Of a stretch of 64,000 nt of DNA, positions 1 through 61,724 are shown piece after piece. Position 1 is the stretch's first letter; every line of letters begins with the position of its first letter. The position numbers were made by a program, and so were the translations under genes. The notes beneath the pieces are model-generated. The model ran no database searches and was not told the origin of the DNA. It worked only from the letters and a program-made list of their open reading frames with translations. Source of the DNA: Candidatus Omnitrophota bacterium (lineage in GTDB: Bacteria > Omnitrophota > Gorgyraeia > Duberdicusellales > 4484-171); contig JAIPHU010000002.1 of NCBI GenBank assembly GCA_021735045.1, forward strand, positions 10,120 through 74,119. Direction: 5' to 3'.

Positions 1-318
1 TTTCGCTATCAGGCGACTTTAAATTTTAATTTATCTGATAAAAAAAGAGGTGCTGCTGAGACTATTGATATCTCTAAGGGCGGTTTGTGTTTTAAAAATG
101 GCAAAAAACTTAAAAAAGGAGATAAAATAGAGGTGGAGCTTATGGTTTTGAATAAAAAAGAAAGGTTGAACCTTGTGGGTCAAGTAGCTTGGGTTGCACG
201 AGCTGAAGAAGACAGCAAGGGTTTTGCAAGATATTATAAGATAGGAATTGAGTTTTCTAAACTTAATCAGAAGGAAAGAAAAATTATTACCCAAGCAATT
301 GAAGATATAGCAAAATAA
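1..318 (+). CDS. PilZ-domain protein, 5'-truncated by window edge (frame open from nt 1)
   Basis: No stop codon from nt 1 in the frame of the 85..318 ORF. C-terminal pattern VAWVARAEE..GFARYYKIGIEF is typical of the PilZ C-terminal beta-barrel. Paralogous to the PilZ tail of the GT2 synthase at 6044..7876. Confidence 0.55.
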   Translation, partial: FRYQATLNFNLSDKKRGAAETIDISKGGLCFKNGKKLKKGDKIEVELMVLNKKERLNLVGQVAWVARAEEDSKGFARYYKIGIEFSKLNQKERKIITQAIEDIAK

Positions 319-402: not shown

Positions 403-642
403 ATGATTAGAAAAGATAAATTATTAGTTAAATTAGATAAACTACAAGAGCTAGAAGGTAGGTTGATTCCTTTGTTGGATAAGCATCTTTCGGCTTCTCT
501 AGACTTTAGTCAGTTGCCAAAAGAGGAAAGGGATAAGACCATGGAATTTTTAAAAAGTAGGGTAAATATACAGAAAAAACACACTGAATCGATTAAAAGT
601 ATCAAAGAAGAATTAACCGAATCCGAAAAAAATGTTTACTAA
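403..642 (+). CDS. small helical protein 'A1' of unknown function; paralog of 8822..9046
   Basis: 79 aa. Shares IP(L/I)..KHL(S/D)(A/S) and a distal conserved His with the 8822..9046 protein (about 30% identity by eye). Stop overlaps the start of the next ORF, suggesting translational coupling. Confidence 0.5.
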   Translation: MIRKDKLLVKLDKLQELEGRLIPLLDKHLSASLDFSQLPKEERDKTMEFLKSRVNIQKKHTESIKSIKEELTESEKNVY

Positions 643-826
643 AGAAGATTACTTAACTTATTTTGATCAATTAGCAGATATTTATAAAGATTCTATTAAT
701 CTCTACACTGATTTGCTAAATGGTTTACAAGATAAAGCAATCCGAAATAAGTTACTAGCAGTTGCTTCAGAAAATATGGAAGCTTTTCGTTTTATAAAAG
801 AAGAAAAGACAAAATTTAATAAATAA
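632..826 (+). CDS. small helical protein 'B1' of unknown function; paralog of 9046..9249
   Basis: 64 aa. N-terminus M(F/L)(T/S)KEDY and a DK(A/E)I(R/K)N block are shared with the 9046..9249 protein. Overlaps the A1 stop by 11 nt. Confidence 0.5.
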   Translation: MFTKEDYLTYFDQLADIYKDSINLYTDLLNGLQDKAIRNKLLAVASENMEAFRFIKEEKTKFNK

Positions 827-837
827 AAGGAGAAGTT

Positions 838-1209
838 ATGCCTGCCAACAAAAAAATACTTATTGCTGATGATGAACCAGATTTTGTGGAACTTATATCC
901 ATGCGTCTTGAAGTTAACGGCTATGATGTGGTTTCGGCTAAAGATGGCCAAGAGGCAATTGATAAAACTAAAAGTGAAAAGCCGGATTTATTGATTTTAG
1001 ACTTAATGATGCCCAAAGTTGATGGGTTTGAGGTTTGCCGGATGCTAAAGTTTGACGATAATTTTAAGGATTTGCCGATAATAGTACTTTCTGCTCTTGA
1101 TCAGCAACAAGATCGGGAAAAGGCCGTTGAGGCTGGAGCCGATGAATACTTTATCAAACCTTTTGATTTAAGCTTACTTTTAACTAAGATTCAAGAACTT
1201 ACTGGATAA
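838..1209 (+). CDS. CheY-like response regulator, receiver domain only
   Basis: Has the DDEPD acidic pocket, the phospho-acceptor context LILDLMMP, and a KPFD C-terminus. RBS aaggag lies upstream. Close paralog of 12183..12545. Confidence 0.9.
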   Translation: MPANKKILIADDEPDFVELISMRLEVNGYDVVSAKDGQEAIDKTKSEKPDLLILDLMMPKVDGFEVCRMLKFDDNFKDLPIIVLSALDQQQDREKAVEAGADEYFIKPFDLSLLLTKIQELTG

Positions 1210-1318: not shown

Positions 1319-3421
1319 ATGGCACGAAGAATCAGTTTAGAAAAAGTACGTAATATTGGAATTATGGCTCATATTGATGCCGGTAAGACAACACTTACCG
1401 AACGCATTCTTTTTTATACCGGGCGGTCGCATAAAATGGGGGAAGTCCATGATGGAGCTGCGGTAATGGATTGGATGAAACAAGAGCAAGAAAGAGGTAT
1501 AACCATAACTTCAGCGGCAACTACTTGTAGTTGGTTGGATCACAGAATAAATATAATCGATACTCCTGGCCACGTTGATTTTACTGTTGAAGTTGAACGT
1601 TCTTTGCGAGTTTTAGATGGATCAATTGCTGTATTTTGTGCTGTAGGTGGGGTGGAACCTCAGGCAGAAAAGGTATGGCATCAATCTGATAAATATGAAG
1701 TGCCAAAAATCGCTTTTGTAAATAAGATGGATAGGGCTGGAGCAAACTTTTTTGAAGTAGTCAAAGACATTGAAGAAGAGCTGGGGGCAAATGTTATCCC
1801 TTTACAAGTTCCTATTGGGGCTGAAGATAATTTTAGAGGAATAATCGATCTAATGGATATGAAAGCTTATATCTACGACGATGAGTCTTTAGGTAAAAAC
1901 TTTCACATTGAAGATATACCCACAGACTATCAAGATAAAGCTAAAGAGCATCATCATATAATGGTTGAAAAAGCTGTTGAACTAGATGATTCTTTAATGG
2001 AGAAGTATCTTGAGTCCGAAGATTCTATTTCAAAAGAGGAGCTGGTTAAAGCTATAAGAAGAGGCGTTATAGCCAATAAAATTGTTCCGGCAATGTGTGG
2101 TTCTGCCTTTAAGAATAAAGGGGTCCAGCGCCTTCTTGATGCGATAACTCTTTATCTTCCTTCTCCTCTGAATTTACCACCAGCTGAAGGAACAGATCCA
2201 AACGATCCTGAGAAAATAATTAAAAGAGAGCCTAAAGATGATGCACCTTTTTCAGCTTTGGCGTTTAAAGTACAAGCTGATCCTCATATGGGAAAACTGA
2301 TTTATTTTAGAGCTTACTCAGGCAAACTTGAGGCAGGCTCATATATTCAAAATGTAACCAAAGGAAAAAAAGAAAGAGTAGGGAGAATCTTACAGATGCA
2401 TGCAAATCAACGTGAAAGCCGCCCGGATATATATGCTGGTGATATTGCTGCAGCAGTAGGGCTTGATAATACTACAACAGGAGATACTTTAACTTCAGTT
2501 GAAGATCAAGTGTTGCTTGAGGCTATGGAGTTTCCCGCACCGGTTATGGCAATAAGTATTAAGCCAGAAAGTAATGCCGATCAAGATAAAATCTCAAAAG
2601 GCTTAAGCCGTTTAGCTGAAGAGGATCCCACTTTTACAGTTAAGACCGATAAAGAAACTGATGAAACTATTATATCAGGAATGGGGGAGCTACACCTTGA
2701 TGTTATTGTTGACCGCCTTAAGCGTGAGTTTGGTGTTTCAGCAAAAGTTGGAGCTCCTAAAGTTGCTTATCGGGAAACTATTTTAGGGACTACAAAAGAA
2801 GACTATAAGTATGCAAAACAAACTGGTGGCCGCGGCCAATACGGCCATGTTGTCTTAGAGCTATCACCATCTAAGTCTTCGGAAGGTTTTGATTTTATCA
2901 ATAGCATTAAAGGAGGGGCAATACCTCGTGAATATATTCCGGCTGTGGAAAAAGGGGTAATCGAGGTAATGAAAAAAGGTATTTATGCAGGGTTTCCGGT
3001 AGTTGATGTGAAGGTAAACTTAGTAGATGGTTCTTATCATGATGTGGATTCATCAGAATTTGCTTTTAAAATGACCGGAGGCGAGTGTTTTAAGAAAGCT
3101 TTTAATAAGTGTGAGCCAGTTTTATTAGAGCCTTCTATGTCAATTGAGATTACAACTCCGGAAGATTATGTGGGCGGAGTTGTGGGCGATATCTGTTCGC
3201 GTCGCGGTAAAGTTATAAATATAGATTCAAAAGGTAAACAACAACTAATTTCAGCAGAAGCCCCTTTAGCTGAAATGTTTGGCTATGCTAGTACTTTACG
3301 TTCTTTAAGTAGTGGGCGAGCAAATTATTCAATGCATTTTGAAAAATACGTACAAGTTCCTTATCAGATAGCAGAAAACATTATCGAAGAAAAGCAAAAA
3401 GAAAAGGAAGCAAAAAAATAA
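1319..3421 (+). CDS. fusA: translation elongation factor G (EF-G), probably a paralog located outside the str operon
   Basis: 700 aa. G1 motif AHIDAGKTT. Near-canonical N-terminus [42 protein letters not shown]. Domains IV/V are recognisable. No rpsL, rpsG or tuf neighbours. Confidence 0.95.
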
Positions 3422-3589: not shown

Positions 3590-6031
3590 ATGAAGAAAAT
3601 AATCAATCTTGTCTTTAGTTTAATTGTAGTTGCCGGATTAACTTCATTTCTATACCATTACACCCAGCAAGCAGAAATAAATTATTATCAGGGGCACCGC
3701 TTATTTTTAAATGGTAACTATAGCAAAGCCATTCCTTACTACAAAAACTCTCTTAAAGCTGACCACAGACAATTTAAGGCAAAAAAAGAGTTAGCTTATT
3801 CTTATTTTTGGACTGATAATCCAAAAAAATCTATACCCCTTTTTGAAGATATTTCTAAAAAAAATCCAAAGAATCAAGAATTAAAACTATATCTGGCTAA
3901 GGCCTATTCTCGAACTGGTAGCCGTAACAAGGCGCTATCGATTATGGGTAAGATTGAGACTAAGGACAAACAACTAGATATAAAAATGACCTTAGCAGAA
4001 ATTTATATCTGGAACAATCAGTTAACTAAAGCCAGAGAGTTGCTTAGAGAAGTTCTAGCTCAGAATCCTAGTAATAATAAGGCAAAGTTTCTTTTAGCTA
4101 AAACTTTTTATTATGATCAAAAAAGTAAAAAAGCTTCAAAAATCTTAGAAAATTTACTAGAGGAAGGAAAAGAACTGCCTGAGAATGTTAAAGAAAAAGA
4201 AGTAAGAGGGCTTTTAGCTCAAACTTATATATCAAGCAATCAGAGTCAAAGGGCGGTTGAGCTTTATCAGCAGTTGGTTGATCAGAATCCTAACGATATA
4301 GATTTAAAAATGAAATTAGCTGAACTCTTAAGCTGGACTAAAGAACTAGAAAGATCAGAAGATTTGTATCGAAAAATAATTAAAAAATCCTCCCGGAAAA
4401 GAGAAGCCTATCTAGGCCTAGCTAAGGTATTAATTGGGCAAAACCGGTATAAAGAAGCTATCAGTATAATTGATAAGATCGGAAAAATAAAAGGAACTAA
4501 AAATGCAAAGCTGATGTATGGAAAAGCATTGTTATATTCAGGAAAACCAAAATTAGCGCGGGATATTTTTGCTAAACTATTAAAAGATTATCCTCAGGAT
4601 TTAGAAACTAAAGAATTATTGGCAGATGCTTACGCCTATAGTAAAAAATATAAAAAAGCGATTTTATTATATCGGAAAATTCTAGTTAAAACAGATCGTC
4701 GCAAAACAAAAAAAGGTTTGGCAGCAGTTTTAAGTTGGAATCAGCAATACCAAAAATCAATTAAATTATACGATCAATTACTTGCCGAGGAGTACGATCC
4801 AGAGGTTAAACGGCAAAAAGCTCGCGTATTAGGCTGGAGCAAGAACTACCAGAAAGCTTTAGCTGAATATAAGGATTTACTGGATAAGGAAAAAAGTTCA
4901 GCGATTAGGCTGGAGATGGAGGCAAAACAAGCTTATTGGCAGGGAGAAGTTAAGAGTGCAATCAACAATTACCAAAAGCTCTTGATTGCAGAGCCAGATA
5001 ACGTTGAAGCTGCCTTTGATCTCAGCCAGCTTTACTCTTATCAGGATATGTGGGAGGAGGCGATCAACCAATATGAAAATATCTTAAAAGTACAACCACT
5101 GCATTCCAGAGCCAGAGAAGGCTTAGAAAAAGCAAAAATTTTTTATAAAAAAGTTAAAACCAGGCTAGATTATCTATTTTTTGAAGCTGATTCTCCCGAC
5201 AGAACTACAGACATTAAAAAACACCAAGTTTTAAAATCAGCATCTTTTTTTATTGCTAAAAATAAAAAAATAAAGATTTCTTCTGACTTTGCCCAGAGAA
5301 GTTTTTCTGATTTTTCTTCGATTTCAGAAAGTAAGACCCAGCTCGAAATTAGCTACCAAAATAATCCCGATTGGAATTTAAGCGCTTATTACGGTTTAGT
5401 TAATTACTACAAGCACCTCGATGAGTTATTCCATCTATTTGGAGCATCTTTTTACCATCGTTTTTTTGATCGGGGGATGTTTAACTTTAATTACCAACGC
5501 CAAAGGCTGACCGACAACAGCCAGTTGATTAGAGATTACGCTTACCGGCATAGTTTTGAAAATAAAATTGATTTTGATTTAACGTCGAAACTTAAAATGG
5601 GCCTTGACTGTAGATTAGCCTATTATTTTGATGCAAATTTTTTAGTTGAACCAGGAATTGATTTTACCTATTATTTTTCTAAAGAGCCCAGGCAATTTTA
5701 TCTTACCTATAGGTACTTTTTTAAAGAATTTAGAAAAGAAAGTTCTGATTATTGGACACCGCGGGGGTTTTCTACCAATAAATTAACTTTAGCTTGGCGT
5801 CATTACCTAAATTCAGACCAATTATTTTTTGGGGCAGATCAGCTTTATTATCAGCTAAAGTATGAAGTTTCCTTAGATTCAACAGACATTTTAATTCATA
5901 AATTTATTGGCCAATTTAACTGGGATATTAATAAGAGTCTGAATATCCACTTTGGTGGTTCTTTTGCCGATACAACTTCCAATGTTTATCAGGAAAAAAG
6001 AATTACGGCGGGGTTAAGCTATTATTTTTAA
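3590..6031 (+). CDS. TPR-repeat protein with C-terminal outer-membrane beta-barrel (BcsC/PgaA/PelB-like exopolysaccharide export porin)
   Basis: Signal/anchor peptide at the N-terminus. About 500 aa of TPR-like repeats. C-terminal ~300 aa has alternating aromatic/hydrophobic strands and ends ...LSYYF (terminal Phe, the BAM signature). Followed 12 nt later by the GT2 synthase. Confidence 0.75.
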   Translation: MKKIINLVFSLIVVAGLTSFLYHYTQQAEINYYQGHRLFLNGNYSKAIPYYKNSLKADHRQFKAKKELAYSYFWTDNPKKSIPLFEDISKKNPKNQELKLYLAKAYSRTGSRNKALSIMGKIETKDKQLDIKMTLAEIYIWNNQLTKARELLREVLAQNPSNNKAKFLLAKTFYYDQKSKKASKILENLLEEGKELPENVKEKEVRGLLAQTYISSNQSQRAVELYQQLVDQNPNDIDLKMKLAELLSWTKELERSEDLYRKIIKKSSRKREAYLGLAKVLIGQNRYKEAISIIDKIGKIKGTKNAKLMYGKALLYSGKPKLARDIFAKLLKDYPQDLETKELLADAYAYSKKYKKAILLYRKILVKTDRRKTKKGLAAVLSWNQQYQKSIKLYDQLLAEEYDPEVKRQKARVLGWSKNYQKALAEYKDLLDKEKSSAIRLEMEAKQAYWQGEVKSAINNYQKLLIAEPDNVEAAFDLSQLYSYQDMWEEAINQYENILKVQPLHSRAREGLEKAKIFYKKVKTRLDYLFFEADSPDRTTDIKKHQVLKSASFFIAKNKKIKISSDFAQRSFSDFSSISESKTQLEISYQNNPDWNLSAYYGLVNYYKHLDELFHLFGASFYHRFFDRGMFNFNYQRQRLTDNSQLIRDYAYRHSFENKIDFDLTSKLKMGLDCRLAYYFDANFLVEPGIDFTYYFSKEPRQFYLTYRYFFKEFRKESSDYWTPRGFSTNKLTLAWRHYLNSDQLFFGADQLYYQLKYEVSLDSTDILIHKFIGQFNWDINKSLNIHFGGSFADTTSNVYQEKRITAGLSYYF

Positions 6032-6043
6032 ATTTAAATTATA

Positions 6044-7876
6044 ATGAATAAGAAAAAATTAATTGATTCTTTGATTTTATTTACTTTGGTTGCAGTGATG
6101 GTCTATGTTGTAACCAGGGCGGTTTTAGTTGGTTATGCTGATTATACTGGCTGGGATCGTTTTAGTGCTATCGGTTTGTTGCTGGCAGAGTTGTTTGTAG
6201 TTTTTCATGGCGTAGGTTATACCTTAAACATCTATCGGGCTTATAGGTATAGTGGTGGAAAAGAAAAGATGCAAGAGGTAGCAAATAAACCTTTGCCAGA
6301 GGAACCATCGGTTGCGATATTTGTTGCTGCGCGCCATGAACCAAAAGAAGTTTTAGAGGAAACTTTTATTAGCATCAAAAACTTAAAATATAAAAATAAG
6401 AGTATTTATTTCCTTGATGATAGCTCTAAAAGCACTTATAAAAAAGAAGCAGATCAATTAGCAAAAGATCTAGATTTAAAGATTTTTCGACGCAAGGATC
6501 GCCACGGAGCAAAGGCAGGAATCATTAATGATTGTCTAAAGACAATTAATTCTAAGTATTTAGTTGTTTTTGATGCAGATCAGAATCCGCTACCTGAGTT
6601 TTTAAATCGTGTGGTGGCGTTGATGGAGTCGGACCAAAGACTTGCTTTTGTCCAAACCCCTCAATTTTATAGTAATGTGGAAGGTTCACAAATTGCCAAA
6701 GCGGCGGCTTTTCAGCAAGCGGTATTTTATGAATATATCTGTGAAGGAAAAAGTAGCCAGGATGCGATGTTTTGTTGCGGAACAAATATTATTTTTCGCA
6801 AAAAAGCCTTAGATCAAGTAGGTGGCCTAGATGAAAGTACAGTTACCGAAGATTTTGCCACTTCTTTTAAATTTCACCAAAAAGGCTGGAACTCTTTATA
6901 TTACAATCATGTCTATGCTTTTGGGATGGGGCCGGAAGATTTAGTCGGTTATTTTAAGCAGCAATACCGTTGGGCCAACGGCACGATCACTGTTTTTAAG
7001 AAAGTGTTAAAGAATTTAATATTGCACCCATTTTCTTTAAAAATTAAACAATGGGTAGAGTATTTACTTTCCAGCAGTTACTATCTAGTTGGTTTTGCCT
7101 TATTTGGCTTGATGCTTTTTCCGATCTTTTATCTTTTATTTGACATCCCTTCTTTCTTTGCTAAGCCACAAGTTTATTTTTTAGTTTTTTTACCTTATAT
7201 AACTCTTTCTTTAAGTATATTTTATTTCGTGTTAAAAGAAAGGAACTATACTGCCGGAGATCTTTTTAAAGGCCAGCTGGCCGGGTTTATAAGCTTTCCG
7301 ATCTATTTGCAAGCCGCTGTTTCTTCCTTTTTTGGCAGAAAGGCTACTTTCGGGATAACCTCAAAAGCAAAGGGGAAGTTTGTATCTTATTTTAGATTGT
7401 GGCCGCAAATTGTACTTTTATTCCTAAATTATATTGCGATTGTCTGGGGAATGAATCGATTCATCTATCAACGTGATCCGGCGGTAGTAATTAATGTTTT
7501 TTGGGCCTTTTATCATTTTTTGCTGTTAGCTTCTATTTTTTATTTTAACGAAAGGATTATTCCTAAGGCTTTTTTAAAAAAAATTGCGAAAGAGAGAATA
7601 GTTGACTATCAAGTTCTCGAGAGAAATCGCCCCAAACCTGAATTAAACTCTAGGAATTGGCCGGTTTGTTTTGCGACCAAGTTGCCGGATCGATTAAAAG
7701 AGGGAACACTGTTGATGGCAAAAGTAAAAAGCAGAGGAGGAAAGCAGCTAATCTTTGACGCAGAAGTTACCTGGGCGAGTCCCAGAAAGCGGTTTGGCGG
7801 TTATGCTACTGGCTTTGGAGTTGCCAAGGCTTCACCGGAAATTATTACCCAATTAAGGAAATTAGTAAAAAAATGA
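6044..7876 (+). CDS. processive GT2 glycosyltransferase with C-terminal PilZ domain (BcsA-like c-di-GMP-dependent polysaccharide synthase)
   Basis: Motifs FLDDSS, VFDADQ, TVTEDF (TED), FCCGTN (FFCGS-like) and QQYRWANG (QxxRW). Multiple TM helices. C-terminal RNRPKPELNSR...GGKQLIF...VTWASP resembles a PilZ domain. Confidence 0.85.
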   Translation: MNKKKLIDSLILFTLVAVMVYVVTRAVLVGYADYTGWDRFSAIGLLLAELFVVFHGVGYTLNIYRAYRYSGGKEKMQEVANKPLPEEPSVAIFVAARHEPKEVLEETFISIKNLKYKNKSIYFLDDSSKSTYKKEADQLAKDLDLKIFRRKDRHGAKAGIINDCLKTINSKYLVVFDADQNPLPEFLNRVVALMESDQRLAFVQTPQFYSNVEGSQIAKAAAFQQAVFYEYICEGKSSQDAMFCCGTNIIFRKKALDQVGGLDESTVTEDFATSFKFHQKGWNSLYYNHVYAFGMGPEDLVGYFKQQYRWANGTITVFKKVLKNLILHPFSLKIKQWVEYLLSSSYYLVGFALFGLMLFPIFYLLFDIPSFFAKPQVYFLVFLPYITLSLSIFYFVLKERNYTAGDLFKGQLAGFISFPIYLQAAVSSFFGRKATFGITSKAKGKFVSYFRLWPQIVLLFLNYIAIVWGMNRFIYQRDPAVVINVFWAFYHFLLLASIFYFNERIIPKAFLKKIAKERIVDYQVLERNRPKPELNSRNWPVCFATKLPDRLKEGTLLMAKVKSRGGKQLIFDAEVTWASPRKRFGGYATGFGVAKASPEIITQLRKLVKK

Positions 7877-8829
7877 TTAAAAAAATTAAATTAATAGTGA
7901 TTATTTTTATTATTATTTTGTTTTCTTTTTTTTATTTTGCATACATAAAGCAAATCGGTAAAAACGATTATTGTTTAACGGGTGCTTTTTTGGCGGACCG
8001 GCCAACTAGAAAAGAGATAAAAGAATTTCAAAACAACTATGGTAAAAAGCCATATTTGGTGATGGTTTTTATTGATTGGGAAAACTTTATTGAAAGAAGT
8101 GTCTATCAAGATATTTTTGCTGCCGGTTCAGTTCCTTTTGTTACCTGGGAGCCTTGGCAGGCCGAAACTAAAGAAGGAATTGATTTTGACCAAATCTTAA
8201 GCGGAGAGTATGATCAGTATATAACTAATTTTATAGAGAGGATCACTAAATTTAAAAAGCCAGTTTTTTTACGCTTTGCTCATGAAGCTAATGGCAACTG
8301 GTATCCTTGGGCCGGGAAAAAAGTGGGAGCTGCGAAGTTAATCGCTGTGCAAAGATATCTCAAGGATTTGGCAGAGAGGCAAGGCCCCAATCAGATCAAG
8401 TGGGTGTTTTCGGTTAATTGGCAAGATATACCGGCAGATAAAGATAATTTTTTTATGAACTACTATCCGGGCAAAGACTACGTTGATTATTTTGGCATTG
8501 ATGGTTATAATTGGGGTGATACGCAAGAATGGAGTCATTGGATGGAATTTGCAGAGATTTTTAAAGATCCCTATCAGATTATAACCTCAGAGACAAATAA
8601 ACCGGTTATAATTTCTGAATTTGGCTCGGCTCAATCCGGTGGAGATAAAGCTGAATGGATAAAAAATACTTTTAAAACTATAAAGAAAATGAAAAGAGTT
8701 AAAGGTTTTGTTTTGTTTAATCTGGATAAGGAAGCAGCTTGGCGGTTTCGGCCCCAAAGTGCAGCTGGTAAGCAACTCAAAAAAGGATTAAACAACTCAT
8801 ATTTTAAGGAGAGCCTGAAAGGTGAATAA
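7873..8829 (+). CDS. membrane-anchored glycoside hydrolase, GH26-like (mannanase/lichenase family)
   Basis: N-terminal TM anchor. LRFAHEANGNWYPWAG matches the GH26 acid/base motif (R.xHEMNg.W.W). VIISEFGS is a candidate nucleophile motif. Start overlaps the GT2 stop (ATGA). Confidence 0.6.
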   Translation: MIKKIKLIVIIFIIILFSFFYFAYIKQIGKNDYCLTGAFLADRPTRKEIKEFQNNYGKKPYLVMVFIDWENFIERSVYQDIFAAGSVPFVTWEPWQAETKEGIDFDQILSGEYDQYITNFIERITKFKKPVFLRFAHEANGNWYPWAGKKVGAAKLIAVQRYLKDLAERQGPNQIKWVFSVNWQDIPADKDNFFMNYYPGKDYVDYFGIDGYNWGDTQEWSHWMEFAEIFKDPYQIITSETNKPVIISEFGSAQSGGDKAEWIKNTFKTIKKMKRVKGFVLFNLDKEAAWRFRPQSAAGKQLKKGLNNSYFKESLKGE

Positions 8830-9046
8830 AAAAGAAATTATCAAGCATCTTAAAGAAGCCTTAATTGCAGAAGAAAAATCAATTCCAATTTATACTAAGC
8901 ATCTTGATTCAGCTGTTTTTTGGACTGGGCTAGGAAAAGAAAAAGCTGAGGAAATTAGAGAGATTCTTTCCGAATTAGCGCGAGGTTCAATGATCCATAA
9001 ACAAATTATTGAAAATTTGATCAAAAAACTAGAAGGGGAAACTTAA
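8822..9046 (+). CDS. small helical protein 'A2' (paralog of 403..642), GTG start overlapping the GH stop
   Basis: 74 aa. IPIYTKHLDSA and SMIHKQII align with A1. Translationally coupled to both flanking genes. Confidence 0.5.
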   Translation: MNKKEIIKHLKEALIAEEKSIPIYTKHLDSAVFWTGLGKEKAEEIREILSELARGSMIHKQIIENLIKKLEGET

Positions 9047-9249
9047 TGCTATCCAAAGAAGACTACCAAGAACATCTTAATCAGATGCTGGAGTTAGAAG
9101 AAAACATGGAAAAAATGTATGAAAATCTAGCCAAGAGGGTTGAAGATAAAGAAATAAAAAATATTTTTAGAAAAATTAGAGATGATGAACAAAAACATGC
9201 CGCTTTGGTGCGAAAAATGAAAAAAATGATTACCGAAGAAAGCAATTAA
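9046..9249 (+). CDS. small helical protein 'B2' (paralog of 632..826); possible half-ferritin-like two-helix protein
   Basis: 67 aa. MLSKEDY... and DDEQKHAAL (an ExxH-like motif). Start is the ATG in TAATG overlapping the A2 stop. Confidence 0.5.
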   Translation: MLSKEDYQEHLNQMLELEENMEKMYENLAKRVEDKEIKNIFRKIRDDEQKHAALVRKMKKMITEESN

Positions 9250-9264
9250 AACTGGTGCAGTAAA

Positions 9265-12168
9265 ATGAGATATAGATTAAGCATTAAAATTTTATTTTGG
9301 TTTTCCTTGTTTATTATAGCAATTGTCGTAGTAAATTTGGCTTCTATTTATCAACTGCAGCGAATGGAAAAGCCCCTAAAAGAAGAGCTAACCCAAGATA
9401 TCCAAAACATCAAAGAAAACGAAATATTAGATCATCTAGCTGAATTGATAAGATACTACGATGAAGTTTTAACTCAATCGGTGCGAAATTATGCTTTTAC
9501 CGGTAACTTAGAGTGGAAGAAGCGCTATCAAAATATTGAACCAAAATTAGATCAGGCGATCAAAGAAGCAATATCTCGTGGAAACAGACAGGATAAAAAA
9601 TTTTTTAAAACAGTTGATCAAGCCAATGAAATTTTGGTCAACCTTGAACATCAAGCTCTAGACTTAGTTGACCAAGGTAATCAAGATCAGGCGATTGCGA
9701 TTTTAGAAAGTAAAAAATATAGAGCCAATAAAAATCAATACTATTCTGGCTTTAGTAGCTACTTACAACGGAGAATGTCTGAGCACGAAAAAGCGATAAC
9801 TTTCTCCAGCAAAGATTTAGAAGAAACAATAAGTATATTAAATGAAATTACAAAACAAAATTATTATTTTTTTATCGCTTCCTTAGCTTTTATCTTGTTG
9901 GTCTCATTCTTGTTTGGCTTATTTTTACGTTTTAATGTTTCTCAGCCGTTAACTCGATTGGTAAAATTAATCAAAGCTTCCGGTAAAAAGGGAGGAAGGA
10001 AAGATCTCGTTAACAATAATTTTGGCTTGATGAAACGAAAAGATGAGATTGGAGAGTTGGCAACAACTTACAACCAAATCTGGCAAGATCTAGAAGAAAC
10101 TACAGTTTCTCGCGAAAAACTAGTAAAAGAAGTTGAGCTGCATAAGGAATCAAAACAAAAGATTAGCCGCCTAAATATGATCTTACGGTCAATCTCAGAA
10201 ATAAACCAAATGCTAATTAATGTTGATAACCGAAAAAGTTTAATTGAAAAAACCTGTCGAGAGCTGATTAATATTAGGGGTTATAAAAGTGCCTGGATTG
10301 TTCTATTTGATCCTCAAGGTGATTTTTTAGATGCTGCATCTTTCGGGCTAGGCGATAAATTTAATTTATTTAAAAATGATATTAAAGTAGGAAGCATCCC
10401 CCGCTGTTTAAGTAAAATATGCAAGGAAAAGAAGCTATTTCAAGTTGATGAGCCGCATCAAATGTGCAAAGATTGCTCCTTATATAAATACCACCAAGGA
10501 GTTAAAACTATTGTTACTTGCCTGCAGCTAGAGGGGGTTGTATATGGGGCCTTAACGGTAGCTATTCCTGAGAGTATTGAAATTGATCAGCAAGAGTTAT
10601 CTTTGCTTAAGGAAATTAGCGGAGATATTTCTTTGGGGCTGCATCACTTAGAAGTTGAAAAAAAACGTCGGTTAACTGAAAATAAGTTAAAAGAAAGAGT
10701 AAAAGAATTTGGTTGTTTGTCAAATTTGGCAAAAATTGTCGAGGAGCCCGGTATTAGCTTAGAAGGAATATTAGCTAAAACAGTGGAGATAATACCTTTT
10801 GCCTTGCAATATCCCAGTAGTGCTTCGGCTCGATTAAGGTATGCAGAAAATGAGTATAATACTAAGGGTTTTAAGGAAACCAATTGTAAATTAAAAGAGG
10901 ATATTTATGTTGATTTAAAAAAGGTTGGTTTTATCGAAGCTTGTTATTCTTTAAGTATACAGGATGAAAAAGGGGAGTGTCCTTTTTTAGAAGAAGAAAA
11001 TACTTTATTTAGATTGATAGCGGAACGGCTAGGCAGAATTATCGAACGAAAAAAAGCCGAAGAGTTTTTAGAAGAAGCTAAAAATAAATTCAGTAGTTTA
11101 GTGGACAATGTTCCCGGGGCTATCTATCGATGTGCCAATGATTCAAAATGGACTATGAATTATATTAGTGATGAAATTGAGAAAATATCTGGTTATCCGG
11201 CTAGTGATTTTATTAAAAATAAGGTAAGAACTTATGAAAGTATAATTTACAAAGAAGACAAGGATTTGGTCAATAAAAAGATTCAAGAAGCTATAGAAAA
11301 AGGAAAATCTTATAATATTGAATACAGAATAGTTAATAAAAATGATAAGGTTGTATGGGTGGGCGAGAAAGGGAAAGGTGTATTCAATAAAGAGGAAAAA
11401 TTGATTTGGCTTGACGGTGTTATCTTTGATATTACTTTACAGAAGAAAGCAGAAGATAAATTAGAAAAAGCAATAAAAATGAAGTCAGATTTTTTATCCA
11501 CAGTTTCTCATGAGTTGCGTACTCCACTGGCTGCAATCAAAGAAGGGATAAATATAGTTTATGACCAATCCGCCGGTAAAATTAACAAAGAGCAGAAAGA
11601 ATTTTTGACGATATCAAAAAGAAATGTAGACCGCTTGGCTCGTTTGATCAACGATGTCTTAGATATCCAGAAATTAGAATCAGGCAAAGCGGAGTTTAAT
11701 TTTAAAAAAGAGAATATCAATGACATAATTAAAGAAGTTTTTGAGACGATGCAGCCCCATGCAGCTAAAAAGCAATTACAGTTAAAATTAAATCTAGATA
11801 GTAATATTTCGAAGATAAAAGTTGATCGGGATAAGATCATTCAAGTTATCACCAATTTGATGAGTAATGCAATTAAATTTACTGAACAAGGGAAAGTAGT
11901 TATAAAAAGCTTGTTAGAGCAAAATGCGATAAAGGTTATAGTCTCTGACACAGGGCCGGGGATAAAAAAGGAAGATTTGTCAAAATTATTTAAGACATTT
12001 CAACAACTTCAAACTGGAAAAGGACGGAAAACCGGGGGGACTGGCCTAGGATTGGCAATCTGTAAGGATATAATCAACAAACACCGTGGGAAAATATGGG
12101 CAGAGTCAGAACTAGACAAAGGCTCAAAATTTATTTTTTTGCTGCCGATTAAGGAAAGGCGAGCTTAA
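9265..12168 (+). CDS. large sensor histidine kinase (periplasmic sensor, TM, HAMP-like linker, GAF, PAS, HisKA, HATPase_c)
   Basis: Two TM segments flank a ~180-aa extracytoplasmic region. H-box SHELRTPL. N, G1 and G2 boxes (NLMSNAIKFT, DTGPGI, GGTGLGL). A Cys-rich GAF-like segment. Confidence 0.9.
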   Translation: MRYRLSIKILFWFSLFIIAIVVVNLASIYQLQRMEKPLKEELTQDIQNIKENEILDHLAELIRYYDEVLTQSVRNYAFTGNLEWKKRYQNIEPKLDQAIKEAISRGNRQDKKFFKTVDQANEILVNLEHQALDLVDQGNQDQAIAILESKKYRANKNQYYSGFSSYLQRRMSEHEKAITFSSKDLEETISILNEITKQNYYFFIASLAFILLVSFLFGLFLRFNVSQPLTRLVKLIKASGKKGGRKDLVNNNFGLMKRKDEIGELATTYNQIWQDLEETTVSREKLVKEVELHKESKQKISRLNMILRSISEINQMLINVDNRKSLIEKTCRELINIRGYKSAWIVLFDPQGDFLDAASFGLGDKFNLFKNDIKVGSIPRCLSKICKEKKLFQVDEPHQMCKDCSLYKYHQGVKTIVTCLQLEGVVYGALTVAIPESIEIDQQELSLLKEISGDISLGLHHLEVEKKRRLTENKLKERVKEFGCLSNLAKIVEEPGISLEGILAKTVEIIPFALQYPSSASARLRYAENEYNTKGFKETNCKLKEDIYVDLKKVGFIEACYSLSIQDEKGECPFLEEENTLFRLIAERLGRIIERKKAEEFLEEAKNKFSSLVDNVPGAIYRCANDSKWTMNYISDEIEKISGYPASDFIKNKVRTYESIIYKEDKDLVNKKIQEAIEKGKSYNIEYRIVNKNDKVVWVGEKGKGVFNKEEKLIWLDGVIFDITLQKKAEDKLEKAIKMKSDFLSTVSHELRTPLAAIKEGINIVYDQSAGKINKEQKEFLTISKRNVDRLARLINDVLDIQKLESGKAEFNFKKENINDIIKEVFETMQPHAAKKQLQLKLNLDSNISKIKVDRDKIIQVITNLMSNAIKFTEQGKVVIKSLLEQNAIKVIVSDTGPGIKKEDLSKLFKTFQQLQTGKGRKTGGTGLGLAICKDIINKHRGKIWAESELDKGSKFIFLLPIKERRA

Positions 12169-12182
12169 AGATAGGGGTAAAG

Positions 12183-12545
12183 ATGAGTAAAAAGATTTTA
12201 ATTGTAGATGATGAGCCAGATATTTTAAAAATTGTAATTTTTCGGCTCAAGAATAAGGGCTATCAAACAATCAGTGCAACCAGTGGAGAAGAAGCGTTTC
12301 AGTTGTTAGGAGAGGATAAACCGGACCTTATCATTTTAGATTTACGAATGCCGGGTATCAATGGGGATGAGGTTTGCCGCAGGATTAAAGCAGACAATAA
12401 TTTAAATAAGATACCGGTAATCTTGTTAACCGCATCTACCGGCCATGATATTGCAGGATTAGCAAAAGATATAGGAGCGGTTGATTTCATTCGAAAACCC
12501 TTTGATAGTCAACATTTTATCAATAAAATAGAGAATGTTCTCTAA
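12183..12545 (+). CDS. CheY-like response regulator, receiver only
   Basis: DDEPD, LIILDLRMP and KPFD motifs. 15 nt downstream of the kinase. Paralog of 838..1209. Confidence 0.9.
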   Translation: MSKKILIVDDEPDILKIVIFRLKNKGYQTISATSGEEAFQLLGEDKPDLIILDLRMPGINGDEVCRRIKADNNLNKIPVILLTASTGHDIAGLAKDIGAVDFIRKPFDSQHFINKIENVL

Positions 12546-12675: not shown

Positions 12676-12972
12676 ATGGAAGAAAACAAGAAAATTTACG
12701 TTGGCAATCTGAACTATGACACTACAAAAGAAGATTTGCAGAAAGCAATTGAAGAAGCTGGTGCCACACCTACAGATGTAACCATTATTAGTGACAAATA
12801 CACCGGCAGATCAAAGGGGTTCGGCTTTGCAGAGTTTGAGACAGAAGAAGATACTCAGAAAGTGATTGAAGCCTTAGAAGGAAAAGAATTAGCAGGAAGA
12901 AACTTAAAAGTAAACAAAGCTCGGCCAAGAAAACCAAGAAATGATAATTTTGGTTCTGGCCGTCGCTTCTAA
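12676..12972 (+). CDS. RRM-type RNA-binding protein (glycine-rich tail)
   Basis: RNP2 KIYVGNL and RNP1 KGFGFAEF. Long purine-rich leader with RBS aaggag. Confidence 0.85.
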   Translation: MEENKKIYVGNLNYDTTKEDLQKAIEEAGATPTDVTIISDKYTGRSKGFGFAEFETEEDTQKVIEALEGKELAGRNLKVNKARPRKPRNDNFGSGRRF

Positions 12973-13020
12973 CAAGTAAACAAAAGAAAATAGATCCGAT
13001 ACTCTCGTAAGTGTTTCATA

Positions 13021-13055
13021 AGAGGCAGTAGATTGTTCTACTGCCTCTTTTTTTA
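13021..13055 (+). terminator. rho-independent terminator after the RRM gene
   Basis: AGAGGCAGTAG-attgtt-CTACTGCCTCT forms a 10-bp stem, followed by T7. Confidence 0.8.
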
Positions 13056-58418: not shown

Positions 58419-59525
58419 ATGGCTGAAGTACGATTTAAAAACATAAACAAAGTATTTAATGCAGATATAACAGCAGTTTCGGGCCTAGACCTCGAAATAA
58501 AAGACAAAGAGTTTGTTGTCTTGCTTGGCCCTTCTGGCTGCGGTAAATCAACAAGCTTAAGGATGCTAGCTGGCTTAGAAACCCCTACCTCTGGCGATAT
58601 TTTTGTTGGTGAAAAAAAGGTCAATGATATGCCGGCTAAAGACAGAGATATCGCAATGGTCTTTCAGAATTATGCGCTTTATCCGCATATGGATATTTAT
58701 AACAATTTAGCTTTTGCTCTTAAGTTACGGCGCTATTCGCGTGATGAGATAAAAAAAAGGGTAAAAGAAGCCGCAGATATTTTAGGTATTGGCCATCTTC
58801 TTGACCGAAAGCCCAAAGAAATTTCTGGAGGTGAGAGGCAAAGAGTGGCTGTAGGTAGAGCCATTGTCAGAAAGCCTCAAGCATTTCTTTTTGATGAACC
58901 ACTTAGTAATTTGGATGCAAAGCTTCGTGTTCAGATGAGGACAGAGATTAAAAAACTCCATATAAAGATAAAATCTACAATGATCTATGTTACTCACGAT
59001 CAAACCGAGGCTATGACTTTAGGGGACAGAGTAGCAGTCATGAAAAATGGTAAACTTTTGCAAGTTGATACCCCTTTAGATGTCTATGATCAACCGGCTA
59101 ATAAATTTGTAGCTGGGTTTATTGGATCTCCACCCATGAATTTTGTAGAAGGAATTTTGCGAAAAAAAGATAGTTCGCTCTATTTCTTAGAAAAAGATGG
59201 ATTCCAGATAAAGGTTCCTGAACAGATGCAGCAAAGATTAGAAAATTATATTGAAAAAGAAGTTATTTTGGGGATTCGTCCCGAGAATTTATATGATAAA
59301 CTTTTTGCATCTTATGCAACAGTTGATAATACTATTGATGTTACCTGCGATGTGATAGAGACAATGGGTTCTCAAAATCACCTGTATCTTACAACTAAAA
59401 AACATACAATAATTGCTGTGGTCGATGCTTCTAACAAACCTGCTGTAGGTAGTAGGGTTGAAATAGTATTTGATACTAAAAAAATCCATTTTTTCGACCC
59501 GTCTACAGAAGATACCATTGTATAA
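58419..59525 (+). CDS. MalK/UgpC-type ABC transporter ATPase with C-terminal regulatory (TOBE-like) domain; no cognate permease adjacent
   Basis: Walker A GPSGCGKST, Q-loop, ABC signature ISGGERQRV and Walker B FLFDEPLSNLD. Confidence 0.85.
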   Translation: MAEVRFKNINKVFNADITAVSGLDLEIKDKEFVVLLGPSGCGKSTSLRMLAGLETPTSGDIFVGEKKVNDMPAKDRDIAMVFQNYALYPHMDIYNNLAFALKLRRYSRDEIKKRVKEAADILGIGHLLDRKPKEISGGERQRVAVGRAIVRKPQAFLFDEPLSNLDAKLRVQMRTEIKKLHIKIKSTMIYVTHDQTEAMTLGDRVAVMKNGKLLQVDTPLDVYDQPANKFVAGFIGSPPMNFVEGILRKKDSSLYFLEKDGFQIKVPEQMQQRLENYIEKEVILGIRPENLYDKLFASYATVDNTIDVTCDVIETMGSQNHLYLTTKKHTIIAVVDASNKPAVGSRVEIVFDTKKIHFFDPSTEDTIV

Positions 59526-60777
59526 TTTTTTTGTATATTCAATATTAAATTTCCTTATTATTTCTATCCTTACCCTTATATTTTTAGGTTTAATCTATCC
59601 CTTTTGGGGAATATTTTTCTTATTTATTACCTTAATTTCTTTTTTTGTATTTTATTTTTTTCACAGAAAGTTAATTAGTAAAAATATAAAAATTATTGAT
59701 GATTTAGAAGAAAAAATAAATATATTAGAAGATTCTTTAGCCAAGAAGCATAAAGTCCTAAAATACTTGCCTCTAAAGCAAGAAAAAACTTCTTTTTTAG
59801 TTAAGCTTTCTCAAGAGTTGATTGAACTAGACGATCCTCAAGATATTTTTAATTTTTTACTTGATGCCGTTAAAAAGTTATTTCCTGATTTTACTTTTGT
59901 TTCTTTGTATGAGTTTAACAAAGAAGATCACTCGCTTGAATTGGTTCAATCATTAAAGAAAAAAGAATTGGCGATTAAAGAAAAACAAGGTAGTGAGATT
60001 GAGCGATGGATGATGCGGCAAAATAGTTCTCTTTTAATTGACGATATAAGGAAAGACTTTAGGTTTGACTCTAGTCAGATAGATGGATTTCTTCAACGGG
60101 GATCATTGTCTTTTTTGGCTAGCCCGCTTTCGGTAAAAGGAGATTTTTTTGGAATTATTCGAATTGAAAATAAAGATTCTAATTTTTTTTCCTATGAGGA
60201 TCTAAGATCATTAAGTAATATCTGTGATTTGGGAGCTATTGTGCTCGAACGTGCAAGATTGATAAGAAGAGTTCAAGAGTTGGCCACAACTGACTCACTT
60301 ACTTCTTTATCTTTGCGGAATTATTTTTCCGAACAGGTAAAAGTCGAGTTAAACCGAGCCAAAAACTCTGGATCTAAAGCGGGGCTGATTATGTTTGATG
60401 TAGATGACTTTAAAAATGTAAATGATACACATGGGCATATGGTAGGCGACCTGGTTCTTAAAAAACTTGCAAAAATTTTAAAGAAGCTTGAGAAAAATCC
60501 TCAAACTACTGTTTGTCGTTATGGCGGAGAAGAGTTTATGGTATTAGTTGCTGATACCAACAAGGAAGAACTTTTAAAAATTGCTGAAGGTGTGCGGAGA
60601 GAAGCCTTTAATTCCGTAGTTTCTTATCGGAGGAATAAAGTTAATTTTACAATATCCGGGGGGATAGCTATCTATCCTGATGATGAAAATGATTTTGATA
60701 AAATATTTAATTTGGTTGATAAAACTATGTATCGGGCAAAAAAAGAGGGTAAAAACAAGATATGTTCTTTTTCCTAA
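59470..60777 (+). CDS. membrane-anchored GAF-GGDEF diguanylate cyclase (start uncertain; the annotated ATG overlaps the ABC gene by 56 nt)
   Basis: Two TM helices, a GAF-like region and an active-site RYGGEEF motif. Confidence 0.8.
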   Translation: MILKKSIFSTRLQKIPLYNFFVYSILNFLIISILTLIFLGLIYPFWGIFFLFITLISFFVFYFFHRKLISKNIKIIDDLEEKINILEDSLAKKHKVLKYLPLKQEKTSFLVKLSQELIELDDPQDIFNFLLDAVKKLFPDFTFVSLYEFNKEDHSLELVQSLKKKELAIKEKQGSEIERWMMRQNSSLLIDDIRKDFRFDSSQIDGFLQRGSLSFLASPLSVKGDFFGIIRIENKDSNFFSYEDLRSLSNICDLGAIVLERARLIRRVQELATTDSLTSLSLRNYFSEQVKVELNRAKNSGSKAGLIMFDVDDFKNVNDTHGHMVGDLVLKKLAKILKKLEKNPQTTVCRYGGEEFMVLVADTNKEELLKIAEGVRREAFNSVVSYRRNKVNFTISGGIAIYPDDENDFDKIFNLVDKTMYRAKKEGKNKICSFS

Positions 60778-61724
60778 TTTTAGTTATACTGCTAGGGGTA
60801 TTTTTCTGGATGTTGATCAAGGAATATCAACTTGAAAAAAAACAATTTAAATCGAGTAAAAAAGAGCTAATTGAAAAAGTTGAAAAATTAGAAAAAGGAG
60901 AAGGCGAATTAAAGAAAAAAATTAAAGATTTTGATAAAAAAACTTCTCAGCTTTTTGCATTTTATGATACGGCTCGATTAGTTTCTTCTCTTGTTGATAA
61001 AAAAGAATTAGAATCTGCTTTTATTGATAAGTTAAGTTCTTTAGAAGGTATAGACAAGATAAGTTTATCCAAACTTGAAGGGCCAAACTGTCACCGGTTT
61101 AAGATTAACCAAGATAACAATTACCTGTATTTGGATACTCAATCACCCAATATCTTTGGCCTTTTCCCGCTTTTTGCAAAACTATTTACTGTATCCTTAG
61201 AAAGGTTAGAACTTTATAACCGCCTTCAGGAGTTATCAATACGTGATTATCTTACTGGTGTTTATAATCGCCGTTTTTTTAATCAGAGAGTAGAAGAAGA
61301 ATTTTTGCGATCAAAAAAATTAAAAAATAAACTGTCTTTTCTAATGATTGACATAGATGATTTTAAAAAAATAAATGATACCTATGGCCATTTAGTAGGT
61401 GATGCTGTTTTAGAAAGGTGTAGTGCTTTGATCTCTGAAGGTGTACGCCAAATTGATTTTGTGGGACGACTCGGCGGGGAAGAGTTTGGTGTATTGCTGA
61501 CTGATACTGACAAAGCGGGTGCGATTATGGTTTCTGAAAGAATATGCTCTCGAATCTCTCAAGAAAAAATAAAAGTGTTTGATGAAAGTTTAAATATGAC
61601 TGTGAGCATAGGCGTAGCTACATATCCTTCAAACACAATTTATATGGATTTATTTACTGAAATTGCCGATAAAGCACTTTACCGGGCTAAAGCCGCTGGC
61701 AAAGATAGAGTTTCTTGGTTCTAA
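60762..61724 (+). CDS. membrane-anchored GGDEF diguanylate cyclase
   Basis: TM helix, coiled coil and active-site RLGGEEF motif. 16-nt overlap with the previous GGDEF gene. Confidence 0.8.
   Translation: MFFFLILVILLGVFFWMLIKEYQLEKKQFKSSKKELIEKVEKLEKGEGELKKKIKDFDKKTSQLFAFYDTARLVSSLVDKKELESAFIDKLSSLEGIDKISLSKLEGPNCHRFKINQDNNYLYLDTQSPNIFGLFPLFAKLFTVSLERLELYNRLQELSIRDYLTGVYNRRFFNQRVEEEFLRSKKLKNKLSFLMIDIDDFKKINDTYGHLVGDAVLERCSALISEGVRQIDFVGRLGGEEFGVLLTDTDKAGAIMVSERICSRISQEKIKVFDESLNMTVSIGVATYPSNTIYMDLFTEIADKALYRAKAAGKDRVSWF

Follow-up and report, generated by a model that had tools for sequence, protein, structure and literature searches.

A BcsB-less cluster of a BcsA-like synthase, a PgaA-like porin and a lichenase-type hydrolase in Candidatus Omnitrophota: a putative beta-glucan secretion system with split ferritin-like proteins

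The present analysis concerns a stretch of 64,000 nucleotides (nt) of Candidatus Omnitrophota contig JAIPHU010000002.1 (assembly GCA_021735045.1, positions 10,120 to 74,119 of the forward strand), hereafter the window, whose DNA is uniform in composition (about 32-37% G+C), and a gene cluster within it that probably directs the synthesis and secretion of a beta-glucan. The cluster encodes an outer-membrane protein with tetratricopeptide repeats (TPRs) and a beta-barrel, a processive BcsA-like synthase of glycosyltransferase family 2 (GT2) and a membrane-anchored hydrolase of glycoside hydrolase family 26 (GH26), which are followed by two small proteins, A2 and B2, a sensor histidine kinase and a stand-alone receiver (Table 1). 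When the open reading frames (ORFs) were re-read, their coordinates, the 12-nt gap between the barrel and synthase genes (6032-6043) and the 4-nt overlap of the synthase and GH26 genes (7873-7876) agreed exactly with a first-pass annotation of this DNA. Its statement that the operon runs on without a break was also accurate, as A2 begins 8 nt before the end of the GH26 gene, B2 shares 1 nt with A2, and the kinase and receiver genes start 15 nt and 14 nt after their respective predecessors. Because of this tight downstream packing and because the only convincing terminator on the + strand between 300 and 13200 is the hairpin at 13020-13049, it is plausible that 3590-12545, seven genes in all, is transcribed as a unit. 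A scan for sigma-70 promoters gave 54 matches against 42 expected, which is the chance level in AT-rich DNA, and therefore no promoter is claimed.

Table 1. Features of the window and B-PilZ fusion genes of related loci (positions in nt; E, expect value; HMM, hidden Markov model)
Feature	Position	Strand	Length	Remarks
3' end of histidine kinase with canonical PilZ	1-318	+		cut by window edge; Pfam PilZ 26.5 bits
A1	403-642	+	79 aa	paralogue of A2; HMM E 7.5e-26
B1	632-826	+	64 aa	paralogue of B2; HMM E 3.3e-26
Stand-alone receiver	838-1209	+		completes module PilZ(-like) > A1 > B1 > receiver
Elongation factor G (EF-G, fusA-like), full-length	1319-3421		700 aa	between A1-B1-receiver module and polysaccharide genes
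TPR and beta-barrel outer-membrane protein	3590-6031	+	813 aa	
BcsA-like processive GT2 synthase	6044-7876	+	610 aa	
Membrane-anchored GH26 hydrolase	7873-8829	+	318 aa	
A2	8822-9046	+	74 aa	GTG start
B2	9046-9249	+	67 aa	
Membrane sensor histidine kinase	9265-12168	+	967 aa	Pfam
Stand-alone CheY-like receiver	12183-12545	+	120 aa	Pfam Response_reg E 2e-29
RNA-recognition-motif (RRM)-type RNA-binding protein	12676-13049		98 aa	follows receiver 12183-12545; carries the hairpin 13020-13049
Intrinsic-terminator-like hairpin	13020-13049	+		first strong one downstream of cluster; 13-bp stem then T-run, after RRM gene
GAF-GGDEF diguanylate cyclase	59470-60777			GGEEF
GGDEF diguanylate cyclase	60762-61724			GGEEF
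B-PilZ fusions of related loci	L024 11688-12215; L028 11657-12148; L036 11640-12113; L042 11630-12166			and 7 more

The synthase carries all of the GT2 motifs of cellulose synthases that had been ascribed to it at first pass: LDDSS (D125/D126), FDAD (D177, D179), MFCCGT (242-247), TED (268-270) and QQYRW (306-310), together with the gating-loop motif FGITSK at 436-441 (F436xxT439xK441). D, DxD, TED, QxxRW and the FxxTxK gating loop were invariant across the 57 aligned homologues. Pfam recognised GT2 families and Cellulose_synt in the protein, and the NCBIfam model CelA (TIGR03030) matched its residues 10-497 (E 6.8e-70). Its best relatives of solved structure in the PDB were BcsA of E. coli (E 5.5e-44) and of Cereibacter (E 6.5e-39), and a Foldseek search with its AlphaFold2 (AF2) model, which has a predicted local distance difference test score (pLDDT) of 82.6, placed the BcsA structures 9b8v (E 1.8e-28) and 4p00 (E 2.3e-27) ahead of plant CesA and hyaluronan synthases, in agreement with a GT-A domain fused to a transmembrane channel. 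The nearest homologues belong to metagenome-assembled genomes (MAGs) of Candidatus Omnitrophota (92% and 77% identity), and JGI labels relatives of the synthase as 'cellulose synthase (UDP-forming)'. In pairwise comparisons, it was 28% identical to E. coli BcsA over 432 aa and 29% identical over 373 aa, the glycosyltransferase core, to the mixed-linkage synthase BgsA of S. meliloti, which was picked by its position after a gene of the HlyD family. From this homology we infer an inner-membrane, processive, BcsA-like beta-glucan synthase. Only two long N-terminal helices precede the glycosyltransferase domain in the model, and the CelA alignment begins at model position 60. With only two transmembrane (TM) helices there, the synthase appears to be without the extra N-terminal TM region and to have the short N-terminus of the RiGT2 (see below) and CesA type.

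A partner of the BcsB kind was sought with phmmer among ORFs from all six frames, both of the window and of 85 fetched loci, with BcsA, PgaC and BcsZ as positive controls; E. coli BcsB gave no match at E<=10 and E. coli PgaD a single match at chance level (E 1.1). For 82 non-redundant loci, every ORF lying up to 6 kb from the synthase was also entered into a clustering. Only five families recurred, i.e., the synthase (80 loci), the TPR-barrel protein (71), GH26 (61), B (59) and A (55), and family HMMs raised the counts for the barrel, A and B to 72, 68 and 67, respectively. No BcsB-, HlyD- or Alg44-like family, no gene of about 700-800 aa and no sugar transporter or catabolic gene recurred within this distance. 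As far as gene neighbourhoods can show, the two approaches together bear out the earlier observation that a BcsB-, PgaD- or Alg44-type partner is absent, which applies to periplasmic or inner-membrane co-polymerases only. Calling the operon 'minimal' with three genes proved to be misleading because A and B are conserved members and the recurrent unit comprises five genes. Omnitrophota, Phycisphaerae and Desulfobacterota all keep the order barrel > synthase > hydrolase, in which stops overlap the starts that follow. When one genome per GTDB species was scanned, relatives of the synthase were found in at least 235 species; the best 80 of these 235 species' loci are mostly from Omnitrophota but also from Phycisphaerae/Sedimentisphaerales, Desulfobacterota and one Neomarinimicrobiota MAG. 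Three carriers are cultured: Desulfobacter vibrioformis DSM 8776, D. curvatus DSM 3379 and Dethiosulfatarculus sandiegensis. In the databases, the proteins are named 'glycosyltransferase', 'tetratricopeptide repeat protein' and 'ferritin-like domain-containing protein'. Full-text literature searches found no description of this gene architecture, which agrees with the first-pass remark that it matched no described system.

The putative exporter has an N-terminal signal-like segment, TPRs over about residues 28-510 (~480 aa; Pfam TPR_19, E 3.5e-43) and the C-terminal sequence ...GLSYYF, in line with its earlier description as an outer-membrane TPR-porin ending in YYF. No Pfam family matched its last ~300 residues, and the sole NCBIfam match to BcsC fell in the TPR region with 34.6 bits against 858. 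A profile of the barrel, which was built from 51 sequences of the fetched loci, aligned in hhalign to the barrel of E. coli PgaA (513-807) with a probability of 91.7% (E 7.9e-7, 256 columns), compared to 1% for the C-terminus of BcsC and 0.1% for the BcsB control. A C-terminal Phe was present in all 51 sequences and the YYF end in 29 of them. Since the profile finds its counterpart in the barrel of PgaA and not in that of BcsC, the exporter is, on profile comparison, PgaA-like rather than BcsC-like; of the two barrel families that had been proposed for checking, PgaA was found to be related and BcsC was not.

The hydrolase contains LRFAHEANGNWYPW and matched GH26 (PF02156) as its only Pfam family, with 41.2 bits against a threshold of 20.2. 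Its similarity to CtLic26A, the GH26 module of Endoglucanase H of Clostridium thermocellum (PDB 2bv9/2v3g), extends over 253 aa at 41% identity (E 4e-53), and the earlier call of GH26 rather than GH8 was thereby strengthened. The catalytic Glu pair that aligns to that of CtLic26A is kept as E138 (HEANG) and E249 (ISEFG), while among PDB sequences the best mannanase match had an E value of 1.3e-8 and the best beta-1,3-xylanase match one of 1.3e-5. Taylor et al. (2005) reportedly identified CtLic26A as a lichenase, and it is said to be specific for mixed-linkage glucan. The hydrophobic N-terminus of the hydrolase at residues 7-24 is predicted to tether it to the inner membrane, so that its catalytic domain would face the periplasm, and the enzyme itself is predicted to be a lichenase-type (CtLic26A-like) GH26 endo-beta-glucanase. 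Characterised GH26 enzymes are mostly beta-mannanases (PMC13390465, PMC6556568), from which the GH26 lichenases branch apart (PMC6556568). The GH26 gene lies directly after the synthase gene or inside the cluster in 61 of the 82 loci, and in nine related loci, which form a single synthase clade, its slot is filled by a GH8 BcsZ-like enzyme (Pfam 1.2e-38). The clade with GH8 in the slot is mostly from Phycisphaerae/Sedimentisphaerales with some Omnitrophota, and includes L046 (11665-12834), L053, L054, L056, L058, L064 and L076. Because the GH26 is of the lichenase type, a mixed-linkage beta-1,3/1,4-glucan would be the single most likely product of the window cluster, although we put this forward tentatively, and cellulose would be the runner-up, which we regard as possible but doubtful. 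At first pass, a mannan or a mixed-linkage glucan had been suggested; the choice resolves towards a beta-glucan since the GH26 is near CtLic26A and only remotely like the mannanases, so that the mixed-linkage half of that suggestion is reasonable and the mannan half is unlikely.

The C-terminal domain of the synthase (about residues 505-610) occupies the position of PilZ in BcsA. The first-pass annotation had labelled the protein a GT2-PilZ synthase and read c-di-GMP (cyclic di-GMP) reception from it, of which the BcsA-type GT2 part stood and the PilZ part is not supported in the form given. Pfam PilZ (PF07238) gave 13.2 bits (E 0.11) on the domain, below the 22.5-bit threshold. PilZ was matched at E<=1 by 18 of 34 homologous C-terminal domains (best 8.4e-5), and no other family recurred; in the AF2 model, strands at 519-595 make up a small beta domain that a terminal helix follows (pLDDT about 77-85). 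A profile of the domain yielded one chance-level match only among PDB sequences, and its hhalign comparison with the PilZ of the B-PilZ fusions (Table 1) and of E. coli BcsA was uninformative, as the test had no power: the positive control, in which B-PilZ was compared with BcsA PilZ, failed as well. RxxxR together with (D/N)xSxxG was found in none of the 49 long synthases, in 45 of which the linker carries [KR]xxx[KR]. As controls for the motifs, the B-PilZ fusions keep both, and the kinase cut by the left window edge shows DISKGG, while its homologue in the related locus L001 (657 aa by the source gene call) shows RRLKR and DISKGG. The segment LPDRLKEG was considered as a DxSxxG motif and dropped, since the Pfam and hhalign registers put the motif position further upstream; the motif is absent either way. 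Most relatives of the synthase are 500-570 aa long and end right after the last TM helix, without the domain. The C-terminal domain would thus be, at best, a divergent PilZ-like barrel that is dispensable for the family as a whole, and its binding of c-di-GMP is unsupported because both motifs are absent and most relatives do not have the domain. The organism itself does make c-di-GMP, judging by the two GGDEF proteins encoded by adjacent, overlapping genes at 59470-61724 (Pfam E 2.5e-40 and 4.7e-45), even though the synthase is without the canonical receptor site.

A2 and B2 are both soluble and helical. A2 matches positions 2-59 of Pfam Rubrerythrin (E 1e-3; 19.9 bits, below the threshold of 22.8) and B2 matches positions 94-136 with 28.4 bits, above that threshold, as well as DUF2383 and EncFtn-like. 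A Ca. Omnitrophica MAG encodes a protein with the same sequence as B2 (100% identity), which NCBI names 'ferritin-like domain-containing protein'. The two proteins are therefore predicted to be the N- and C-terminal halves of a rubrerythrin/ferritin-like four-helix bundle. In the A2 type, helix 1 keeps a Glu that is followed by a His, and helix 2 keeps SxxH; the B2 type conserves a Glu and ExxH (DEQKH in B2 itself); in the B1 type, the His of ExxH is lost. The A family has 102 representatives among 1.84 billion proteins, and since nearly all of these are 72-82 aa long, the split state is the norm and not the result of a broken gene. A homologue search with B2 found five close relatives only; the fusions of B were found in the fetched loci. 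The B1 gene of the window shares its first 11 nt with the end of A1; in this region (626-642), GAAAAAAATGTTTACTAA reads ...K N V Y and stop and, in the +1 frame, M F T K. Because of this overlap, A ends of the form (D/N)VY-stop or DAF-stop co-occur across loci with B starts of the form MFTK or MLSK. The same A/B overlap is seen in most pairs of L008-L081, and a run of seven A's directly precedes the B1 ATG in the window. The overlap suggests translational coupling, and a frameshift might conceivably fuse A to B into a full ferritin-like protein.

Gene order and gene fusion tie A/B pairs to PilZ-type domains by three independent routes. Long synthases outside the window lineage (at least 16 loci) are, in every case, directly followed by A1 > B1 > stand-alone receiver, with the receiver after B1 and 384-445 nt past the synthase end, and the hydrolase lies further downstream, often with a second A2 > B2 pair; short synthases are followed by hydrolase > A2 > B2. 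In the lineage of the window, L001, L006 and L007, the A1 > B1 > receiver module lies 5.3 kb upstream instead (403-1209 in the window), where it directly follows the kinase that ends in a canonical PilZ (DISKGG). A fusion of B to a canonical PilZ with RxxxR and (D/N)xSxxG is encoded in 11 loci (Pfam PilZ 28.6 bits in L024), and no description of a B-type half-ferritin combined with a PilZ domain was found in the literature. In a rough neighbour-joining tree without support values, long and short synthases were interspersed in the Omnitrophota clade, which suggests more than one joint gain or loss of the PilZ-like domain and A1-B1-receiver. Across phyla, A and B are retained as part of the cluster, and they co-vary with PilZ domains. 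A2-B2, which had been noted as a downstream continuation of the operon, is indeed contiguous with it, but with A in 68 and B in 67 of the 82 loci the pair is more than incidental.

Judged by the criteria of each, the window system falls outside Bcs, Pga and Bgs and is a mosaic: a BcsA-like core, a PgaA-like exporter, a lichenase-type GH26, a relic of PilZ or none, and a split ferritin-like pair. With the Bcs systems of E. coli and Cereibacter sphaeroides, it shares the processive GT2 with D, DxD, TED, QxxRW and the FxVTxK gating loop, the inner-membrane channel formed by the synthase, and an endoglucanase and a TPR/beta-barrel exporter in one operon. It differs from them in having no BcsB, two fewer N-terminal TM helices, GH26 for GH8 and a barrel that is not detectably BcsC-like, as well as in its C-terminal domain, which has no PilZ motifs and is absent in most relatives; BcsE/F/G/Q/R are missing and A/B are present instead. 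PgaABCD is similar in its compact operon and in the outer-membrane protein with N-terminal TPRs and a C-terminal barrel, whereas the window synthase is nearer BcsA (E 6e-45) than PgaC (E 2e-16), PgaD and the PgaB deacetylase are absent, and the PgaA NCBIfam score is far below its cut-off. RiGT2 of the Gram-positive Romboutsia ilealis is a BcsA-like (1,3;1,4)-beta-glucan synthase of ~600 aa whose product is cleaved by lichenase; it lacks the N-terminal TM helix that pairs with BcsB, has no bcsB nearby, and its C-terminal PilZ barrel (about 520-595) keeps RxxxR and D/NxSxxG but did not bind c-di-GMP in vitro (PMC10374906). By description, the window synthase resembles it in size, short N-terminus, the lack of a bcsB nearby and, presumably, the PilZ-type C-terminal barrel. 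RiGT2 has no outer-membrane exporter, its host being Gram-positive, no GH26 or A/B has been reported for it, and its PilZ motifs are retained, unlike those of the window. It provides a precedent for a BcsB-independent GT2-PilZ synthase of mixed-linkage glucan. The rhizobial BgsBA with TolC makes a lichenase-sensitive, mixed-linkage beta-glucan using a BcsA-like GT2 and an HlyD-family partner, and BgsA binds c-di-GMP via its own non-PilZ C-terminal domain (PMC5567048, PMC13438883). Like the window system, it represents a BcsA-like GT2 without BcsB in a diderm, but it relies on a membrane-fusion protein and TolC, whereas the window has a TPR-porin. The BLASTP similarity of the window synthase to BgsA stops at residue 450, with no likeness in the C-terminal domain of BgsA, and at the S. 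meliloti locus an HlyD-family gene adjoins and no hydrolase gene lies beside bgsBA. Finally, CtLic26A, which shares the Glu pair with the window GH26, is a secreted, cellulosomal, catabolic module of Lic26A-Cel5E (CelH), unlike the single-domain, N-terminally anchored enzyme of this biosynthetic operon.

Taking these data together, we consider it likely that the whole system carries out synthase-dependent secretion of a beta-glucan without BcsB and is controlled through A/B and PilZ-type domains, which supports the first-pass reading of a synthase-dependent exopolysaccharide operon. The GT2 would polymerise UDP-glucose (uridine diphosphate glucose) and thread the chain through its own membrane channel, its N-terminus of two TM helices lacking the extra region whose first helix in BcsA coils with BcsB. 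The periplasmic TPR domain would then receive the chain, which would leave through the PgaA-type beta-barrel, and the membrane-anchored GH26 may trim or release it, as BcsZ does for cellulose. Control would be cytoplasmic and of an unusual kind: the split A/B pair, the stand-alone receivers and the sensor kinase most likely act on the synthase through PilZ-type domains, where the association is observed and the mechanism is proposed. It is conceivable, albeit rather unlikely, that A/B are a PilZ-partner module, a half-ferritin heterodimer that gates glucan synthesis together with the receiver, replaces or complements c-di-GMP, and stands in for the activation by BcsB or PgaD. The translationally coupled A and B would then form a heterodimeric four-helix, possibly di-iron, bundle that docks on the relic PilZ of the synthase, the B-fused PilZ or the kinase PilZ, and the signal might be redox, oxygen, iron or phosphorylation. 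Cellulose synthases of diderm bacteria are generally held to be inactive without BcsB, and the other BcsB-less beta-glucan synthases studied so far either work with a membrane-fusion protein and TolC (BgsBA) or are Gram-positive (RiGT2). A BcsA-like synthase coupled to a PgaA-like TPR-porin and a lichenase-type GH26, without a periplasmic co-polymerase and in poorly known, mostly uncultured anaerobic phyla, could therefore serve as a natural test of what BcsB is needed for and is a candidate second bacterial route to mixed-linkage beta-glucan. The BcsB-less architecture in diderms and its spread across phyla should be a moderate surprise to specialists. The split ferritin-like pair tied to PilZ domains is a putative, unstudied regulatory module, and this association is the most unexpected element, known so far from genomic data. 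The three cultured Desulfobacterota relatives bring the core system within experimental reach.

Several observations weigh against this interpretation. The synthase scored 235.9 bits with TIGR03030 against a cut-off of 699.1, and 162.2 against 992 with PRK11498, and therefore is not an equivalog of CelA; its equal identities to BcsA and BgsA do not discriminate between polymer products. The NCBIfam PgaA model TIGR03939 matched the exporter in the TPR region only, with 58.8 bits against 366.65, and the AF2 model of its barrel had a low confidence (pLDDT 53); a homologue search with the barrel domain found five proteins only, and the resulting model supports an outer-membrane beta-barrel but not a family assignment. 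A specificity like that of CtLic26A would be an extrapolation at 41% identity, and the clade with GH8 may make cellulose, or a single replacement of the enzyme may lie behind its GH8. That the system works without BcsB is concluded from the lack of such a gene close to the synthase and within 64 kb, which is not a complete genome. The cultured Desulfobacterota loci do not have A/B, and any physical action of A/B on the synthase is suggested by genomic association.

The most serious competitor, which we regard as possible though clearly less probable, is a divergent cellulose synthase operon in which GH26 replaced GH8 with the polymer unchanged and BcsB was lost or lies at another place in the genome. 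The synthase finds its best matches among cellulose synthases, in keeping with its JGI label, and the sister clade has a GH8 in the same slot. Set against this, the characterised enzyme closest to the GH26 is a lichenase, BcsB was found in none of the 82 loci, the porin is not BcsC-like and the synthase is as close to BgsA as to BcsA; the GH8 and GH26 loci also belong to different synthase clades, whose products may differ. The family name of GH26, the sole Pfam match, and the prevalence of beta-mannanases among its characterised members could speak for a beta-mannan or another non-glucose polymer, but we hold this to be very improbable: mannanase structures reached E 1e-8 at best compared to 4e-53 for the lichenase, the synthase has the complete BcsA-type motif set, and its best matches are cellulose or beta-glucan synthases. 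The mannan reading was rejected on these grounds.

The regulatory part of the interpretation competes with the view that the synthase is canonically gated by c-di-GMP through a functional PilZ and that A/B and the two-component system are unrelated neighbours. The location and the modelled fold of the C-terminal domain, a small beta domain with a terminal helix where BcsA has PilZ, as well as the weak Pfam matches in 18 of 34 homologues and the two GGDEF cyclases of the window are consistent with such a view, which nonetheless appears quite unlikely to us, as the domain scored 13.2 against 22.5 bits and 0 of 49 long synthases keep both motifs, while the neighbouring PilZ domains do. Moreover, most relatives lack the domain, A/B are found in 67-68 of the 82 loci and co-vary with it, and the PilZ of RiGT2 did not bind c-di-GMP either (PMC10374906). 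That GH26 and the TPR-barrel protein might serve the uptake or degradation of environmental beta-glucan, next to a glycosyltransferase by accident, would suit the normally catabolic role of lichenase-type enzymes, CtLic26A being cellulosomal; it is hardly credible given the order barrel > synthase > hydrolase, which is kept with its overlaps in three groups (Omnitrophota, Phycisphaerae and Desulfobacterota), and an arrangement that mirrors BcsZ and PgaB in secretion systems. This catabolic reading was rejected because of the conserved order and the lack of a recurrent sugar transporter or catabolic gene within 6 kb in the 82 loci.

As for the neighbouring genes, the kinase downstream of B2 has a periplasmic sensor region followed by GAF, PAS, HisKA and HATPase domains (Pfam). 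It is lineage-specific, since no more than 19 of the 82 loci have a kinase at a distance of up to 6 kb from the synthase. The receiver that follows it has no output domain. The EF-G gene occupies the same position in L001, L006 and L007, and the RRM gene has the same position in L001. The cultured Desulfobacterota loci have two extra small TPR genes upstream (L079, 3932-6109; L075, 4524-5875), and in Dethiosulfatarculus (L079) a STAS protein and an anti-sigma-type kinase are encoded upstream, which suggests a different, partner-switching regulation of these clusters. In the closed Omnitrophota genome CP070780.1 (L005), genes for a polysaccharide deacetylase and two acetyltransferases (5317-7772) lie directly upstream of the TPR genes of the cluster, which hints at a modification of the polymer in that lineage only.

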